64,000 bases of DNA. Origin: a virus. The notes beneath the pieces are model-generated. The model saw nothing but the letters and a program-made list of their open reading frames with translations, was not told the DNA's origin and did not search any database. Shown piece by piece: positions 23,424 to 29,039 of the stretch; the first letter of the stretch is position 1, and every line of letters begins with the position of its first letter. The position numbers were made by a program, and so were the translations under genes. The DNA lies in IMG/VR virus record IMGVR_UViG_3300030116_003118, positions 20,495 through 84,494 of that record; one strand, written 5' to 3'.

Positions 23424-24392
23424 GTATGTTCGCCCGGACTAATTTGTTAAACACTTAAAATCGAAAATTTGGCCCGTAATTTATTTGCCACTTGCGTTTT
23501 TTTTCTACCTGTTTTAATTACATTCCCAGAATAAAAATGTTTTTATCATTCTTTTAGTGGTAAAAGAGACCATTAGTTTTGTATTCTTTACTTCGCGACC
23601 CCGTTTTTACAGTACATTAATTACAGGCTTTACTTTTGGTCGCTCTGTATATAGATATCACAGGTGCGGGTACTATTTAGATATACTACTAGCAGGTATT
23701 AAGATTTTAAGCCTGCTGCGACTAAATAAAACAAATAAAAATCAAAGAAAAAAAATCGTTCCAAAGCATATGGTCATGCAAATATATTTGACCCGTAAGG
23801 AATATCATTCAATCACGAATGTAATCTTCTACGCACAATTGCTGATTGCAGCAATTGTAGGTACTATGTACCTGTAGAATTATACCGCGATTTACTTCCC
23901 TTCCATATGGTCATGTAAATACATGCACCCGTCAGGAAATTCTTCCAACAACGATTGTCGTATTCAGTGTTCAGTGGAGCATAGTAGTGATAACACTTAC
24001 TATTACCCTATTTCTCTGAATACGTCATCTTATGTTTTCATCCTTCCATATGGTTCGGAGGTGAAACACGGCGGATTAACACGCATTATGAGTTATACTT
24101 CACTCATCATCGTCATAGAAAATATCCACGTTTTCACCTCCATACGAACCCGGCGGGTTGCACAACTTGTGACAACCATATGGTAATGCCTGTGCTTTGC
24201 AAACAGAATGCCCGATAAACGGGACTTACTTCATTGTTACGATTTTACAGCAATTACCCATCTTTACTCTAAAATCGCCTAATTCCATTCCGCAGGTTTC
24301 ACATATTTTAATCATTATTTTTACATCCATTAAACCAGCACCAATAGAACGAGGATTCACAATCATTACAGGAGGGAAGGGTATTTCTCATA

Positions 24393-25121
24393 CTAATCCT
24401 CCAATACCTGTTTAGTAGTCTCAGGCGTACATTCGTAATTAGCCTCGCTTTTTATACTTGTCTCACAATCAACCTCTATCATTACAACATCATCTGAATA
24501 CTTCTGTAATATATCTGTAACTGTTTTGCGCATCTTCTTCATTGTGGATAGTGGTGTTTCTACTAGCATAAACTCAATGTTCTTTCTATCGGTCACTGAT
24601 TCGGCTTCGTAAGTGATTACCATTTTTAGAGTAAAAGAACCACCGTATCCTTGTTCAAATTTGGTCTTCATTGTAGTGCCATCTTCAAACAATACTTTGC
24701 CCATAGCACCAGCAGATATTTGTTCTGCTCCTTCTGGTAATTCAAAGACTTCTTCATCCACTACTAGATATTCGCCTCTTACTCTCTTCCAATCATGGCT
24801 GCTTGTTTTGGTATAATTGGTAGCAATAGTGGCTTCAATACCATATTCATCTAATCCTTCTATTGCTCTATCAGCCTGTGAACTGTAAGCAAGAGTCATC
24901 ATAATTTGATTGTTATCATCAACAATGCTGTATGTAGTTTCTTCATCTATTATTTCTTGAAAACCATAGTTCTCTGCGCTCGGAGTTCCATAAGCGTAAC
25001 TAGCAGTTAGTGCCAAACCCTTATCAAATAGGTCTGATTGCACCTTTCTGTTCAATTTCTTGTGGTCTCTAAAACTATCACTCTTGAATTTGATTGCCAT
25101 CTTTCTTTCATATATTGTCAT
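24393..25121 (-). CDS. Acidic hypothetical protein inside a palindrome-bounded cassette
   Basis: 242 aa ORF. Confidence 0.75.
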   Translation of the reverse strand: MTIYERKMAIKFKSDSFRDHKKLNRKVQSDLFDKGLALTASYAYGTPSAENYGFQEIIDEETTYSIVDDNNQIMMTLAYSSQADRAIEGLDEYGIEATIATNYTKTSSHDWKRVRGEYLVVDEEVFELPEGAEQISAGAMGKVLFEDGTTMKTKFEQGYGGSFTLKMVITYEAESVTDRKNIEFMLVETPLSTMKKMRKTVTDILQKYSDDVVMIEVDCETSIKSEANYECTPETTKQVLED

Positions 25122-25310
25122 TTACTCATCTCCTATTTGTTCAACATAATCATTCAATGCTGACTTCATATCTTTCATTACATCTTCTAGGTTATCACCA
25201 GATACCTTTAGTTTGCTAATACACAATACTAGGGCAGACCCAGATTTCATGTGCTTAACCTCTAACACGTATTTTGGCTCGTTAATTATTGTTGCGTCAT
25301 TTGTTTCCAT
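25122..25310 (-). CDS. Small hypothetical protein, probably leaderless
   Basis: ATG at 25310 (METNDATII) lies about 22 bp downstream of a TATATATT box. Confidence 0.6.
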   Translation of the reverse strand: METNDATIINEPKYVLEVKHMKSGSALVLCISKLKVSGDNLEDVMKDMKSALNDYVEQIGDE

Positions 25311-25331
25311 ACATCTTATTAGTTTTATCAG

Positions 25332-25373
25332 AATATATAGGGTGAGTGTTAGCAAAGCACACTACCATATGGT
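25332..25373 (-). promoter_or_regulatory. Putative promoter: palindrome, CTTTG box, TATA box
   Basis: Minus strand reads ACCATATGGTagtgtgCTTTGctaacactcaccCTATATATT. Confidence 0.6.
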
Positions 25374-25397
25374 TTGCTTTGCGTTAAACCCGGATGG

Positions 25398-25426
25398 AGA
25401 ATAGGGGGTAATTACCCCCCTATTCT
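25398..25426. terminator. Hairpin at 3' end of the 25420..25965 gene
   Basis: AGAATAGGGGGTA-at-TACCCCCCTATTCT. Confidence 0.5.
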
Positions 25427-26075: not shown

Positions 26076-27906
26076 TATGAAGTAGGCTACAAAAGAGTTC
26101 AGGCTACAGCCACTCGCACTCTATAGTGCGAATCTAAATGTGGTGAGATGTGCCTGAAATCTATTGTAGTCGCTCAATACCCCAAATCGGGTTTTGTCCG
26201 ACTCAAACAATAATAGACGGTAAATCAAGTTTTAGACTTAACCAATGCTGCTTTCGCTTAGGCTAGATACATTGTGTATCTTAGCAGCCTTAGAGCCTTC
26301 TTATTGATGTAGTTAATTTTAACAACATCAATAATTAAAACATGATAAACCATCTATTAACTCATCGGACAACCATATGGTTGAGTTTAGATAATAGTAG
26401 AACTTTCGAAACGTAAAGGAGGGCTTTCGAAAGTGCATACCTAGCGTGGTAATTCTCAATTACAGCCAAAGTGATAGCGTAGTATGCAGTATCGAAAGAA
26501 CGAGTTTAGGTTTCGAAAGGCTACTTATCATAAACGACACCCTATTTCTTTTGTCGGGTATAAACCTTTACGCTGCGTTATACGAGCAGCACATCCTTCG
26601 TGACGCTTTGGCTCTTATTATGAATAATCACTTCAATTGTACTGCCGTATAACGCGCTCTTTTTGTTTATTACCATATGGTTTTGCTTTGCGAATAAACC
26701 AGATTTCAAATTGAAGGATGCGAGTGATTATTGATTATGGGGGCAAATCTTCGGCATCACCTTAATTCCCCTCACTCGACTTATTTCCTTCAATGGGCTT
26801 GAATCTGAATGGGTTTTGTTTTGTGCTTTCCTAAGGCACTCTCAGACCCGACTGAGTAAATGAAAGTGTAGGGGAGATTATGTTTCCACATCTTCCCAAT
26901 TCCGAATGCGTGTTAGTTTTAAGAAAATTTGCTAAGTTTCTTATTAACGCCGGAATACCAGATTATGACCCCGCTAAGGGTTGTGTAGTGTGGTATCTTT
27001 TTCTTCAATCCCACTCCCTGCCCACTATAGGCTCTAATCTGTGCCTTACACCCTAACAACGGTGTTATTCAGCCACTACTTACCGGGTTGCACTCCCGGC
27101 ATTAGTAGGTAAGTAACCGAATATATGAGGTGTTCTTTCACAAAGTATCACACCATATGGTTACATAGTGTGAGTTTACGCCTAAGGCTGTATTTTGGGT
27201 CTCTTTCAATAAGAGAGTCCAAACGTGGCCAAAAGCCAGCGTTAGGCGTAAAGGAACCTTGATAACCTGACGGGTTGTCTTTTGTATTTGTAAGGCTGTC
27301 TTCGTTCAATTCAAATGGCAATCATAAAGTTTTACCTTGTTGTAACGCTTAGGCTCACTGTAATGACAGTGTACTAAGGCCGCGCACTGATTTGCGCTGG
27401 CCTGTAAAACATTATGTTACCATCTTCATCTTGCCAGCCTTTTGTTTTGTAAGACAACCATATGGTAAGGATAAACGTATGCTGGTGGTATAGGCTCTCT
27501 AAAGAGCCAATCTAAATGTTAAATACTTCCAGCATACGGAGATACACCAGATTTCTGGTCGGGTATTATGGAAAGTTTCGCTTAACTAGGGTGATAAACG
27601 GCGCAGGAAGGGTAAAGTTCTACGAAGCGTAAAACGTGTTGACTTGTATCTTGGATACATTTACTCTTTACCACTCCTGCGACCAGTTTCTCACTCCTAT
27701 TTAAGACTCAACTATTTCCTAAACCATATGGTACGATTAATTGAACAGATAGATGCCTTAATCGCTTCTGTTAAAAGTAGGCAACTGGGAAATCGAAACT
27801 GCCTACCTCCGTTTCGACTGGAAGTGTAAAAATTACACCTTCGCTCCGAAAAAAACGGCTTGTTTTTCCTTCTCGGCTTTCCAGACCCCTGAAAAACGCT
27901 ATCATT
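26076..27906 (+). other. Six consecutive palindrome-bounded, self-complementary non-coding segments (structured RNA or ssDNA)
   Basis: Long stems, e.g. 26403-26412/26510-26519, 26575-26584/26646-26655, 27175-27185/27242-27252, 27476-27485/27529-27538; no credible ORFs. Confidence 0.75.
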
Positions 27907-27944
27907 ACCATATGGTTCGGCTTTGTATAGAACCATATATATAC
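27907..27944 (+). promoter_or_regulatory. Putative promoter: palindrome, CTTTG box, TATA box
   Basis: ACCATATGGTtcggCTTTGtatagaacCATATATATA upstream of 28012, which has a GGTGA RBS. Confidence 0.6.
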
Positions 27945-28011
27945 TCGATGACCTTGCCAAGAATGCCCCCGAACAGAGGCAACGAATGATAAAAACAATA
28001 GGTGATAAAAG

Positions 28012-28521
28012 ATGGAAGATATTGAGTGGGATTCAGTAAAGATAAAAGTAAACACTATGCTTGAAGGAAACGCAGAAGTAGGTGACATACCTTCTGATGT
28101 CGTTACCCTAGCACAGATGTTAATAACGACAGGAGATAATAACTCCTCAACAAGAGATAGCCTGACTAACAGCATTAAGGACATGCTAAAGCCATACGCA
28201 GGATATCCGTGGAAGAGAGGCAATCAGGGCATTCTACCAGCCGCAGCCCGCGCTGTAGTAGATTCTGCAACTGATAACATCAGAGAAGCAGCAAGAACGT
28301 TCTTTAACGAGACTTCGCAGTATTCTCAGCCACTTCTGCGAAAGCACGGTAAGAGCAAGGGTTCCCCTGTTTACGCCGATGCTGACGAGTATGCAAACGA
28401 ACTTGCATCAAAGGCTCGTAAGGCAGCAACACAACTCTTCAAGGATGGAGAGTGGGATGGTTCGCTATCCGGCCTTGCTGCTTGTGCGGCTTATGATGAC
28501 GTAACTACGGAGGATGAGTGA
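28012..28521 (+). CDS. Hypothetical protein, HGKS...WDGS family, paralog 2
   Basis: 169 aa; LRKHGKSKG...YANE...WDGS; AGGTGA RBS. Confidence 0.85.
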   Translation: MEDIEWDSVKIKVNTMLEGNAEVGDIPSDVVTLAQMLITTGDNNSSTRDSLTNSIKDMLKPYAGYPWKRGNQGILPAAARAVVDSATDNIREAARTFFNETSQYSQPLLRKHGKSKGSPVYADADEYANELASKARKAATQLFKDGEWDGSLSGLAACAAYDDVTTEDE

Positions 28522-28558
28522 TTATCCTCCGTAGCCTATAGTTCGGGTGCATTTTCTC

Positions 28559-28610
28559 GGAGAGTGGGAATAGGGTCTTTAATGGCCTTATTCCCCTCTC
28601 CCTCTTTTCA
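28559..28610 (+). terminator. Hairpin plus T-tract after the 28012..28521 gene
   Basis: GGAGAG.GGGAATAGGGTC...GGCCTTATTCCC-CTCTCC followed by CTCTTTT. Confidence 0.5.
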
Positions 28611-29039
28611 GGTTCTTATTTCCGAGCAAAGCAGAAATAGAACCATATGGTATTAGGTTCATTATGAGAGGTGGGGCGCGAGGTGTGCCGCACCATTTAT
28701 ATGTTCTCAAGAATCCTATGGAATGCTAATCAGTATTGTCAGTATTTGAGACAGGAAAGTGCATAGTTTTCTAATGACAGTATATGAAAGAATCTAAATT
28801 AATGGCGTAAAATATTCTAGCCGTTAAAACAGATAGAAACTCTGGGTGGAGAATGTGGTTCTATATGATATATTATATCCATTATCAATACCCATATCTA
28901 TATGACATATCCTATATGATATGATAAGGAGGATTCCCTCTGAGTAAAAGAAGTCACGATATGTCATGTTTCTACTCTTTCTAGTTAGCGATAATAACGA
29001 AGTTGGGATGATGTGTTAGGAAATGAATAAGAAGTTAGT

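Follow-up and report, generated by a model that had tools for sequence, protein, structure and literature searches.

The window analysed here is a stretch of 64,000 nucleotides, bases 20495-84494 of the 84.5-kb viral record IMGVR_UViG_3300030116_003118 in IMG/VR (a record that is about 90% complete), and our subject is an array of small cassettes and gene-less modules, joined by copies of one short palindrome, that lies between 23767 and 28651 of the window. Minus-strand structural genes (portal, terminase, capsid and tail) occupy the left 23 kb of the window and plus-strand replication genes (RNR, ligase, PolB and primase) its right side from 29 kb on, and the array sits at the switch between these two divergent blocks, at the minimum of cumulative GC skew and with a G+C content of 0.42 against about 0.35 around it. 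A position between divergent gene blocks is likewise found in all five related loci that have enough flanking sequence. The portal has its best relatives in the haloviruses HVTV-1 and HCTV-5 (29-30% identity) and PolB matches haloviruses at about 25%; a clamp-loader-like AAA protein, primase, RNR and an ERCC4 nuclease are also encoded, and DNA_ligase_A_M is found in 2 of 106 open reading frames (ORFs), giving two ATP-dependent ligases as in magroviruses. Among the matches listed in a Pfam survey of the record's ORFs (25 of 38 matched families) are furthermore AAA_24 (RecA/Sak4-like), ERCC4 and PD-(D/E)XK nucleases and the two ligases. Philosof et al. (2017, PMC5434244) describe magroviruses as tailed double-stranded DNA (dsDNA) viruses assigned to marine group II archaea, whose genomes of 65-100 kb combine a structural block like that of haloviruses with a replisome of archaeal type and include two ligases (groups A and B). 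The record matches these features in its 84.5-kb size, its halovirus-like structural block, its archaeal-type replicative block and its two ligases, and judging from sequence it probably represents a magrovirus-like marine archaeal virus with a marine metagenome as its provenance. Among the archaeal viruses of the surface ocean magroviruses belong to the most abundant, and to our knowledge little is known about how archaeal viruses acquire and reshuffle their accessory genes, which are probably early or anti-host genes.

All ten copies of ACCATATGGT in the 84.5-kb record fall in the array, and CCATATGG occurs 13 times in the window, 12 of these within 23903-28650, against an expectation of 0.82. 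The flanking A (-1) and T (+1) are found in 90% of 912 arm reads. The joints divide the region into units in such a way that neighbours have one site in common, and four of these units are cassettes with an arm at either end (U3, 24176-25372; U4, 25365-26074; U7, 26673-27160; U11, 27908-28650), which are separated by gene-less units of 190-310 nt. The joints and the units without arms are as follows.

24175-28651: ten ACCATATGGT joints, starting at 24175, 25364, 26066, 26372, 26672, 27152, 27457, 27723, 27907 and 28642
23903 and 24046: CCATATGG without the flanking A/T; at 23767, CATATGGT
23767-24183: left edge of the array, three short units (about 130-143 nt) that lack CTTTG arms
26067-26380 and 26373-26680, plus strand: U5 and U6, gene-less folded modules without arms between U4 and U7, missing at the same place in the relatives L053 and L083
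27153-27465, 27458-27731 and 27724-27915, plus strand: U8, U9 and U10, three gene-less modules without arms, of which U8 and U9 are replaced in L053 and L083

Scanning IMG/VR with the pattern ACCATATGGT-N2-8-GCTTTG gave more than 116 loci, 64 of a set of 116 containing at least three CCATATGG sites. When the units of these loci and of the window are taken together (309 in all), CTTTG arms flank 210 of them on both sides and 31 on one side only, the other 68 having none (Fisher P=5e-38), and the arms thus occur in pairs. In cellular genomes the arm pattern was met at no fewer than 120 loci, where we estimate a chance expectation of about two thousand for a 16-base pattern in 596 Gb, and among the 80 of these matches that were listed there was no array, every one being a single match and the taxa being unrelated. 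A blastn search with 23500-29000 returned no GenBank phage match, and a literature search at the level of main texts, two magrovirus papers among them, returned no published description of the palindrome, the hairpins or the cassettes.

Read inward from a site, the boundary module consists of ACCATATGGT followed by GGT, a variable stem of 5-8 bp, a CTTTG loop closed by an R-Y pair, the second strand of the stem, and ACC. The hairpin starts from the GG(T) of the palindrome itself, each arm folds alone, and in each of the window's eight arms it is the strand leading inward from the site that shows CTTTG. Arms and cargo of the four cassettes are given below.

24182-24212, plus strand: U3 far-end (terminator-side) arm, hairpin with loop GCTTTGCAA and inner stem CTGT/ACAG
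25341-25366, minus strand: U3 promoter-side arm, stem GGTAGTGT / ACACTCACC, loop GCTTTGCTA, with a TATA-like box at 25333-25340 next to it
24393-25310, minus strand: U3 cargo, ORFs of 62 aa (25122-25310) and 242 aa (24393-25121)
25371-25390, plus strand: U4 far-end arm, hairpin GGTTTG / TAAACC with GCTTTGC in the loop
26040-26070, minus strand: U4 promoter-side arm, loop ACTTTGTGAA, its stem overlapped at the 3' end by a TATA-like box at 26035-26043
25420-25965, minus strand: U4 cargo, a 181-aa protein of the KHGKSGGG...WDG family
26678-26701, plus strand: U7 far-end arm, hairpin GGTTT / AAACC, loop TGCTTTGCGAAT
27129-27154, minus strand: U7 promoter-side arm, GGTGT / ACACC with ACTTTGT within the loop, TATA-like box at 27121-27128
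26863-27101, minus strand: U7 cargo, a manA-like structured RNA
27912-27936, plus strand: U11 promoter-side arm, stem ATGGTTC / GAACCAT, loop GGCTTTGTATA, TATA-like run at about 27933-27944
28611-28644, minus strand: U11 far-end arm, an 11-bp stem with loop TGCTTTGCTCG
28012-28521, plus strand: U11 cargo, a 169-aa paralogue of the U4 protein (29% identity)

The local hairpins of the arms are under structural selection. When the 5' and 3' halves of an arm are compared with chimeras made from halves of different arms, the cognate halves form longer anchored stems (4.10 versus 3.07 pairs, P=5e-46) and have a lower minimum free energy (MFE; -6.5 versus -4.9 kcal/mol, P=1e-20), while arms without CTTTG, with an MFE of -4.7, do no better than chimeras. 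In 26 arms of one geometry 79.7% of cells are paired, against 67.7% after shuffling, the covariation score is 0.35 against 0.137 with none of 500 shuffles reaching as high, and two positions vary freely among A-U, U-A, G-C and C-G. The bases flanking CTTTG covary as well, ACTTTGT, GCTTTGC and GCTTTGT being common and ACTTTGC having been seen twice. Furthermore, the GGT...ACC hairpin is present in all eight orthologous arm pairs of the window and L053, with compensatory changes between orthologues and with stems remodelled in the promoter arm of U4 and in the far arms of U7 and U11; the closing pair of the U7 far arm has gone from G-C to A-T, and the inner stem of the U11 far arm has been rewritten even though the U11 protein is 96% identical. 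A scan of the window for perfect stems of at least 5 bp, which found 16 CTTTG hairpins, 5 of which lie in the array, was set aside as too crude.

The initial annotation had read these arms otherwise, namely as two halves of a panhandle by which the mutually complementary ends of each cassette pair with one another. The complementary ends are real: in U3 TGTGCTTTGC (24191) pairs without mismatch with GCAAAGCACA (25352), and AACA/TGTT and TGCCC/GGGTG, the second with two G-T pairs, lengthen the match; the pairs reported for 25365-26074, 26673-27160 and 27908-28650 are likewise present, and on reading the sequence the arm at one end of every cassette reaches a TATA-like box. The further claim that the ends co-vary with their own partner is not confirmed: three of the four cassettes in the window show no preference for the cognate end and the outer stems of a larger set match only at chance level. 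In an all-versus-all comparison of duplex energies the four cognate pairs average -17.5 kcal/mol on the plus strand and the 12 non-cognate pairs -16.55, the minus-strand means being -15.4 and -15.6 kcal/mol respectively. Only in U3 is the own partner also the best one (-26.8 kcal/mol), while the other three cognates rank third or fourth of four in rows and columns, so that in three of four cassettes cognate ends pair no better than non-cognate ones, the very outcome that the initial annotation had named as speaking against its reading. It had also been claimed that the ends pair with mostly plus-strand G-T pairs, and the plus strand does give the more stable duplex for each of the four cognates, by 0.8-3.5 kcal/mol, but non-cognate pairs lean the same way (-16.55 versus -15.56) and the bias is therefore not specific.

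The wider comparison comprised 195 distinct two-armed cassettes from the window and the 116 related loci, other ends of the same locus serving as non-cognate partners, and its numbers are to be read with the caveats that near-duplicate loci occur in the sample, which was de-duplicated by exact sequence only, and that the duplex energies derive from RNA parameters. Cognate ends are somewhat more alike than non-cognate ones (5.87 versus 5.00, P=0.002) and form slightly more stable duplexes (-15.5 versus -13.9 kcal/mol, P=7e-4). The first four stem bases are however identical in 5.6% of cognate and 6.4% of non-cognate pairs, which is chance, whereas the 7-mer loop core is identical in 35.4% and 24.1%, respectively, and a common block of at least 10 nt is found in 32 of 195 cognate but 31 of 640 non-cognate pairs (P=7e-7). 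The excess likeness of cognate ends is thus small and confined to the loop core, not the stems, and the cognate specificity of the ends is weak. U3 belongs to the minority with likeness between its ends, and in its L053 orthologue a 15-nt block is common to both arms. Since the same module stands mirrored at both ends, left and right ends roughly complement one another regardless of cassette, and we take the apparent panhandle, which these data do not support either in single-stranded DNA or in a long plus-strand RNA, to be a by-product of mirror-image boundary modules. More generally, end-to-end complementarity of cassettes should not be taken for a panhandle unless cognate specificity is demonstrated.

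All four cassettes are self-contained transcription units of archaeal type, each made up of a TATA box, a gene or RNA, and a terminator hairpin. TATA or ATAT follows the hairpin in 81 of 133 arms lying upstream of an ORF and in 31 of 131 downstream arms (P=8e-10), the hairpin of the upstream arms being followed by ACC-YTAWAWA and the median distance between site and ATG being 74 nt. What follows a downstream arm is typically a GC hairpin with a UUCG-type loop on the mRNA strand, and in every cassette a strong terminator hairpin of its own is situated inside the far arm. The initial annotation's point that the mRNA of a cassette does not contain both arms fits the RNA-library contigs, nine in number and from two metatranscriptome runs of one study, which show presence only and all lie inside cassettes: in U3 (24736-24901), in U4 (25462-25829 and 25566-26013), in U7 (26859-27041, the manA-like RNA and the deepest) and in U11 (within 27965-28562). 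None of the nine extends to an arm, a joint or a gene-less module, a gap in coverage that does not count as absence. The contig ends at 26013 in U4 and 27965 in U11 come some 22-25 nt after the TATA boxes, roughly as these would predict. Over 23700-28364 the window is also colinear with a DNA contig from a different study. Three contig joints that were considered as signs of excision were rejected, having short sides (25-45 nt) or low depth and coming from other viruses that share a 36-nt manA core.

Comparison with related loci shows how the units differ in place and number. L053, L083 and L087 are close relatives (DNA of the U11 region is 86% identical) and keep the order U3, U4, U7, U10, U11, but U5 and U6, which lie between U4 and U7 in the window, are missing from L053 and L083, and these two carry three other modules in place of U8 and U9 as well as extra modules to the left of U3. 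Homology with L053 and L083 stops and restarts at the palindrome. In more distant loci the armed cassettes themselves are found in other arrangements, the window having U3-, U4-, U7-, U11+ where L111, oriented by its right-flank gene, has U3+, U7+, U4+, U11+, and L098 having U4+ to the left of U3-, followed by U11+. Where two joints from the same locus are compared, the stretch of exact identity across the site is short, at a median of 11 bp (90th percentile, 14 bp). Of the interpretations offered at the outset, that of terminal inverted repeats for the inversion or exchange of cassettes is the one that agrees with these observations, given that the same cassettes are reordered or flipped in L098 and L111 and that gain and loss of units occur exactly at the palindrome.

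The gene-less modules of about 300 nt (U5, U6, U8 and U9, together with those of L053 and L083) form one structured family that is found in either orientation. Folded, such a module has a helix P1 of 3-9 bp around a hairpin P2 (4-7 bp, with a CTAA, CAAA or TAAA loop), followed by a conserved RRTCTAAATGT and, further on, by CCCnnATCGGGTT and CGCTTAGGCT plus a hairpin. In a per-sequence helix search P2 has at least 5 pairs in 10 of 11 segments against 11% of shuffles, and the stem sequences are nearly all different. RNAalifold applied to 15 whole modules found the pairs of the terminal palindrome alone, and applied to 11 motif segments it found nothing, the helices being out of register. The modules have no Rfam match, and the exact two-motif pattern is found in 8 IMG/VR loci. 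In several P2 loops (27497-27506, for example) the sequence is CAAAG or TAAAG and so complements the CTTTG of the arm loops, which may reflect a common binder, a loop-loop contact or chance.

Taken together with the descriptive core set out above, it seems to us reasonably probable that the arms are terminal inverted boundary modules of a region in which cassettes are shuffled at the DNA level. The boundary module would then act on DNA and not in mRNA, each module being a joint of the shuffling region. An identity of 11 bp at the joints, together with stems that are conserved in structure and not in sequence, suggests either recognition of the core and the folded arms or microhomology and template switching. 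Joints might accordingly be recognised by way of the fixed palindrome and of arms folded in unwound or single-stranded DNA, and then be cut and rejoined, or else template-switched, and a symmetric joint would make insertion free of orientation. The partial likeness between the loop cores of one cassette could be a trace of the reaction, by conversion between inverted arms, or of a duplication of the arm at the birth of the cassette. A bolder version, in which an enzyme drives a structure-guided and orientation-free exchange at ACCATATGGT and the CTTTG hairpins and the array would be a kind of integron without integrase in abundant ocean archaeal viruses, is possible but doubtful. Promoter-gene units and folded RNA-like modules would in that case be moved, flipped, inserted and deleted by the enzyme and the loop-core likeness would be its footprint, and if an enzyme does recognise the joints it would constitute a new recombination system and possibly a tool.

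A number of observations weigh against boundary modules that shuffle cassettes. Six-frame searches of the record gave 0 matches to the resolvase/serine invertase family (PF00239), to tyrosine integrases (PF00589, for which controls matched in 14 of 14 genomes) and to Y1 (HUH) transposases (PF01797), the search for an enzyme being limited by a record completeness of about 90% and by the listing of 25 of 38 Pfam families. The comparison of order and orientation among loci relies on members of multigene families with 47-72% identity, and some of the apparent moves could be replacements by paralogues. Between the closest relatives the units that differ are gene-less modules without arms, and since such modules are gained and lost at the palindrome the arms are not needed for gain or loss there; they may instead, or also, serve the expression of the cassettes. 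The related loci were gathered by the arm pattern itself, which inflates the arm frequencies among the 309 units, and the group of 26 arms was picked by best stem, which favours structure. The stems are moreover short, with a median of 4 uninterrupted pairs from the GG, Watson-Crick cells amount to 65% against 57% in chimeras, and as to the strand that folds, G-T and A-C mismatches number 362 and 129 in 515 arms and 412 and 192 in chimeras (odds ratio 1.31, P=0.053), which favours neither strand clearly.

The possibility that the arms are transcription elements, a viral or host factor binding the palindrome and the CTTTG hairpin upstream of the transcription factor B recognition element (BRE) and TATA box so as to regulate early cassettes, with the far copy as an insulator or second site and with shuffling as something incidental to repeated regulatory DNA, a situation comparable to that of the regulatory sequences conserved at early genes of crenarchaeal viruses (PMC11065993), is one that we regard as unlikely though by no means implausible. 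It would account for the fact that arms mark just those units that have a TATA box and RNA-library contigs while the gene-less modules are without them, and the 3' half of the stem does lie at the expected place of the BRE, directly before the TATA box. A candidate for such a factor may also be seen in the first gene to the right of the array (29251-29862, plus strand), whose product of about 200 aa matches phrog_1485 in its C-terminus and has a weak helix-turn-helix (HTH)-like N-terminus (phrog_323 and phrog_11013, E 0.001-0.006), and which is kept beside the array in L053, L087, L111 and L102; sequence comparison makes it a candidate DNA-binding partner of the array. A factor that binds duplex DNA would however leave the covarying stems unexplained, and a promoter element is needless on the terminator side, where TATA/ATAT comes after only 31 of 131 arms and where a strong terminator hairpin is already found inside the far arm of each cassette. 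For the same reason, that the stronger hairpin sits inside the arm, the arms were rejected as the cassette's own terminators. Somewhat more unlikely is that a true panhandle forms in single-stranded DNA (ssDNA) of the lagging strand and brings the flanking copies of ACCATATGGT together, so that slippage or template switching deletes or inverts the cassette precisely. Such a process would resemble the transposase-independent precise excision of Tn10 and Tn5, which is stimulated by their inverted repeats, and the arms of every cassette are inverted and enclosed by 10-bp repeats that count as direct and inverted at once. The excess of blocks of at least 10 nt in cognate ends (32/195 versus 31/640), the -26.8 kcal/mol duplex of U3 with the 15-nt block of its L053 orthologue, and a joint identity whose median of 11 bp is on the scale of slippage rather than of homologous recombination all agree with it. 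Three of the four window cassettes nevertheless show no cognate advantage, outer stems are at chance (5.6% versus 6.4%), covariation is within arms, and the selected local stems need the very GGT/ACC bases that a panhandle would use; gain and loss at the palindrome extends to modules without arms, and slippage accounts for loss but not for insertion or reordering.

Homologous recombination of the type considered for the promoter-early stem-loop (PeSL) cassettes of T4-type phages is in our opinion very unlikely to suffice. The repeated boundary would here provide homology for viral recombination proteins and the hairpin would be an RNA terminator, and there is a real parallel in that, according to Arbiol et al. 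(2010, PMC2839356) and Comeau et al. (2014, PMC4122927), a promoter and stem-loop flank small ORFans in a hyperplastic region, each cassette has its own promoter, insertion, deletion and replacement occur at the motifs and no dedicated recombinase is known. The record itself encodes AAA_24 (RecA/Sak4-like), ERCC4 and PD-(D/E)XK nucleases and two ligases that could act in this way. The exact identity between joints (median 11 bp, 90th percentile 14) is on the other hand far below the usual need of homologous recombination, and the arms are diverse in sequence, are mirror images and not direct repeats, and are followed by no U-tract. Least credible of all, to the point of being hardly worth entertaining, is a long plus-strand precursor RNA whose panhandles are processed in the manner of archaeal rRNA processing stems. 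The greater plus-strand stability of the four cognate duplexes, by 0.8-3.5 kcal/mol, would speak for it, but non-cognate pairs have the same bias, cognate specificity is weak, transcription of the cassettes starts from TATA boxes of their own on either strand and no bulge-helix-bulge motif is evident. Processing of a long RNA at such motifs was likewise rejected as the main reading. Autonomous elements resembling insertion sequences were dismissed as well, since the cargo differs and no HUH motif could be recognised by eye.

The closest known systems in logic are PeSL cassettes, the attC arrays of integrons and the early promoters of crenarchaeal viruses, and the array is a member of none of them. 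PeSLs have sigma-70 promoters and terminator stem-loops, are direct repeats and are thought to act by sequence homology, whereas the array belongs to an archaeal virus and has TATA promoters, a mirrored module, an invariant 10-bp palindrome and stems conserved in structure, with only about 11 bp common to joints, units in either orientation and gene-less folded modules on the same joints. The early (anti-defence) genes of archaeal viruses are described in PMC11065993 as many single small genes which, like the cassettes of the array, are each equipped with a near-identical TATA/BRE core and conserved flanks, and in some of these viruses inverted repeats span the BRE, but the motifs described there stand at the promoter end only, are conserved in sequence like an operator, and have no common palindrome and no mirror image at the far end. 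Integron cassettes are, like those of the array, separated by imperfect-palindromic sites conserved in structure rather than in sequence, and this manner of conservation in both systems suggests recognition of folded single strands. They are however promoter-less, of one orientation and equipped with one attC each, and none of this applies to the array, which has two hairpins per cassette, its own promoters, either orientation and a perfect-palindrome core, and whose record has no IntI-type recombinase (PF00589). Sub-terminal hairpins acting in single-stranded DNA are also known from IS200/IS605 elements and from REP/BIME sequences, and Hin and Gin invertase sites have symmetric cores of the AACC-NN-GGTT type as the array has. 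Unlike for IS200/IS605 and Hin/Gin, the record contains no Y1 transposase or resolvase-family invertase and the cargo varies by cassette, and unlike in IS200/IS605 and REP/BIME the hairpins are mirrored and not on one strand. The loose analogy with Frpo single-strand promoters drawn in the initial annotation extends to a hairpin that adjoins a promoter but no further, and it was abandoned as an explanation of the arms, since the virus is a tailed dsDNA virus and the hairpin ends before or merely touches the TATA box, rebuilds no duplex promoter and is also found at the promoter-less end. What sets the array apart is thus a plug-in architecture of self-contained promoter-gene units with symmetric, structure-conserved ends, one invariant joint and a placement between core blocks, and it resembles PeSLs and integrons in outcome, not in parts. 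The combination of palindrome, CTTTG hairpin and TATA box furthermore provides a sequence handle on the accessory genes and small RNAs of uncultured viruses.

As for the cargo, the U7 RNA scores 32 bits (E 1.7e-5) against the manA model of Rfam (RF01745), with the full model 1-192 aligned and many conserved positions matched, but this is below the gathering threshold of 55.2 bits and the RNA is manA-like and not a certified member. It is the sole credible match in an Rfam scan by E-value, while a tRNA scan and an Rfam scan at gathering scores gave nothing but tRNA-Leu at 30372. The ORF list contains no convincing ORF downstream of the manA-like RNA in U7, which is found here in an archaeal virus and with a TATA box of its own; its 36-nt core (27040-27075) recurs in contigs of other viruses. 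No match to the cargo proteins was found in PHROG, Pfam, PDB sequences or Atlas. The KHGKSGGG...WDG family comprises proteins of about 170 aa with KHGKSGGG, an invariant WDG and an acidic C-terminus, and tens of loci have it, at 1-3 copies per array. The two U3 proteins (62 aa and 242 aa) likewise recur widely. Between the far arm of U3 and the stop of its 242-aa ORF (24190-24391), 200 nt are 90% identical to L053 and L083, where the protein of that ORF is 45% identical, and this may be a conserved non-coding or small-ORF element inside the cassette. To the right of the array, between it and the first gene of the replication block and near the minimum of GC skew, 28840-29100 is AT-rich with short repeats of the ATATGATAT type and a CCA run, and is a possible origin or control region. 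In the left block (1495-23331, minus strand) many of the late proteins in the ORF list start with M-x-W-x-E-h-h-K.

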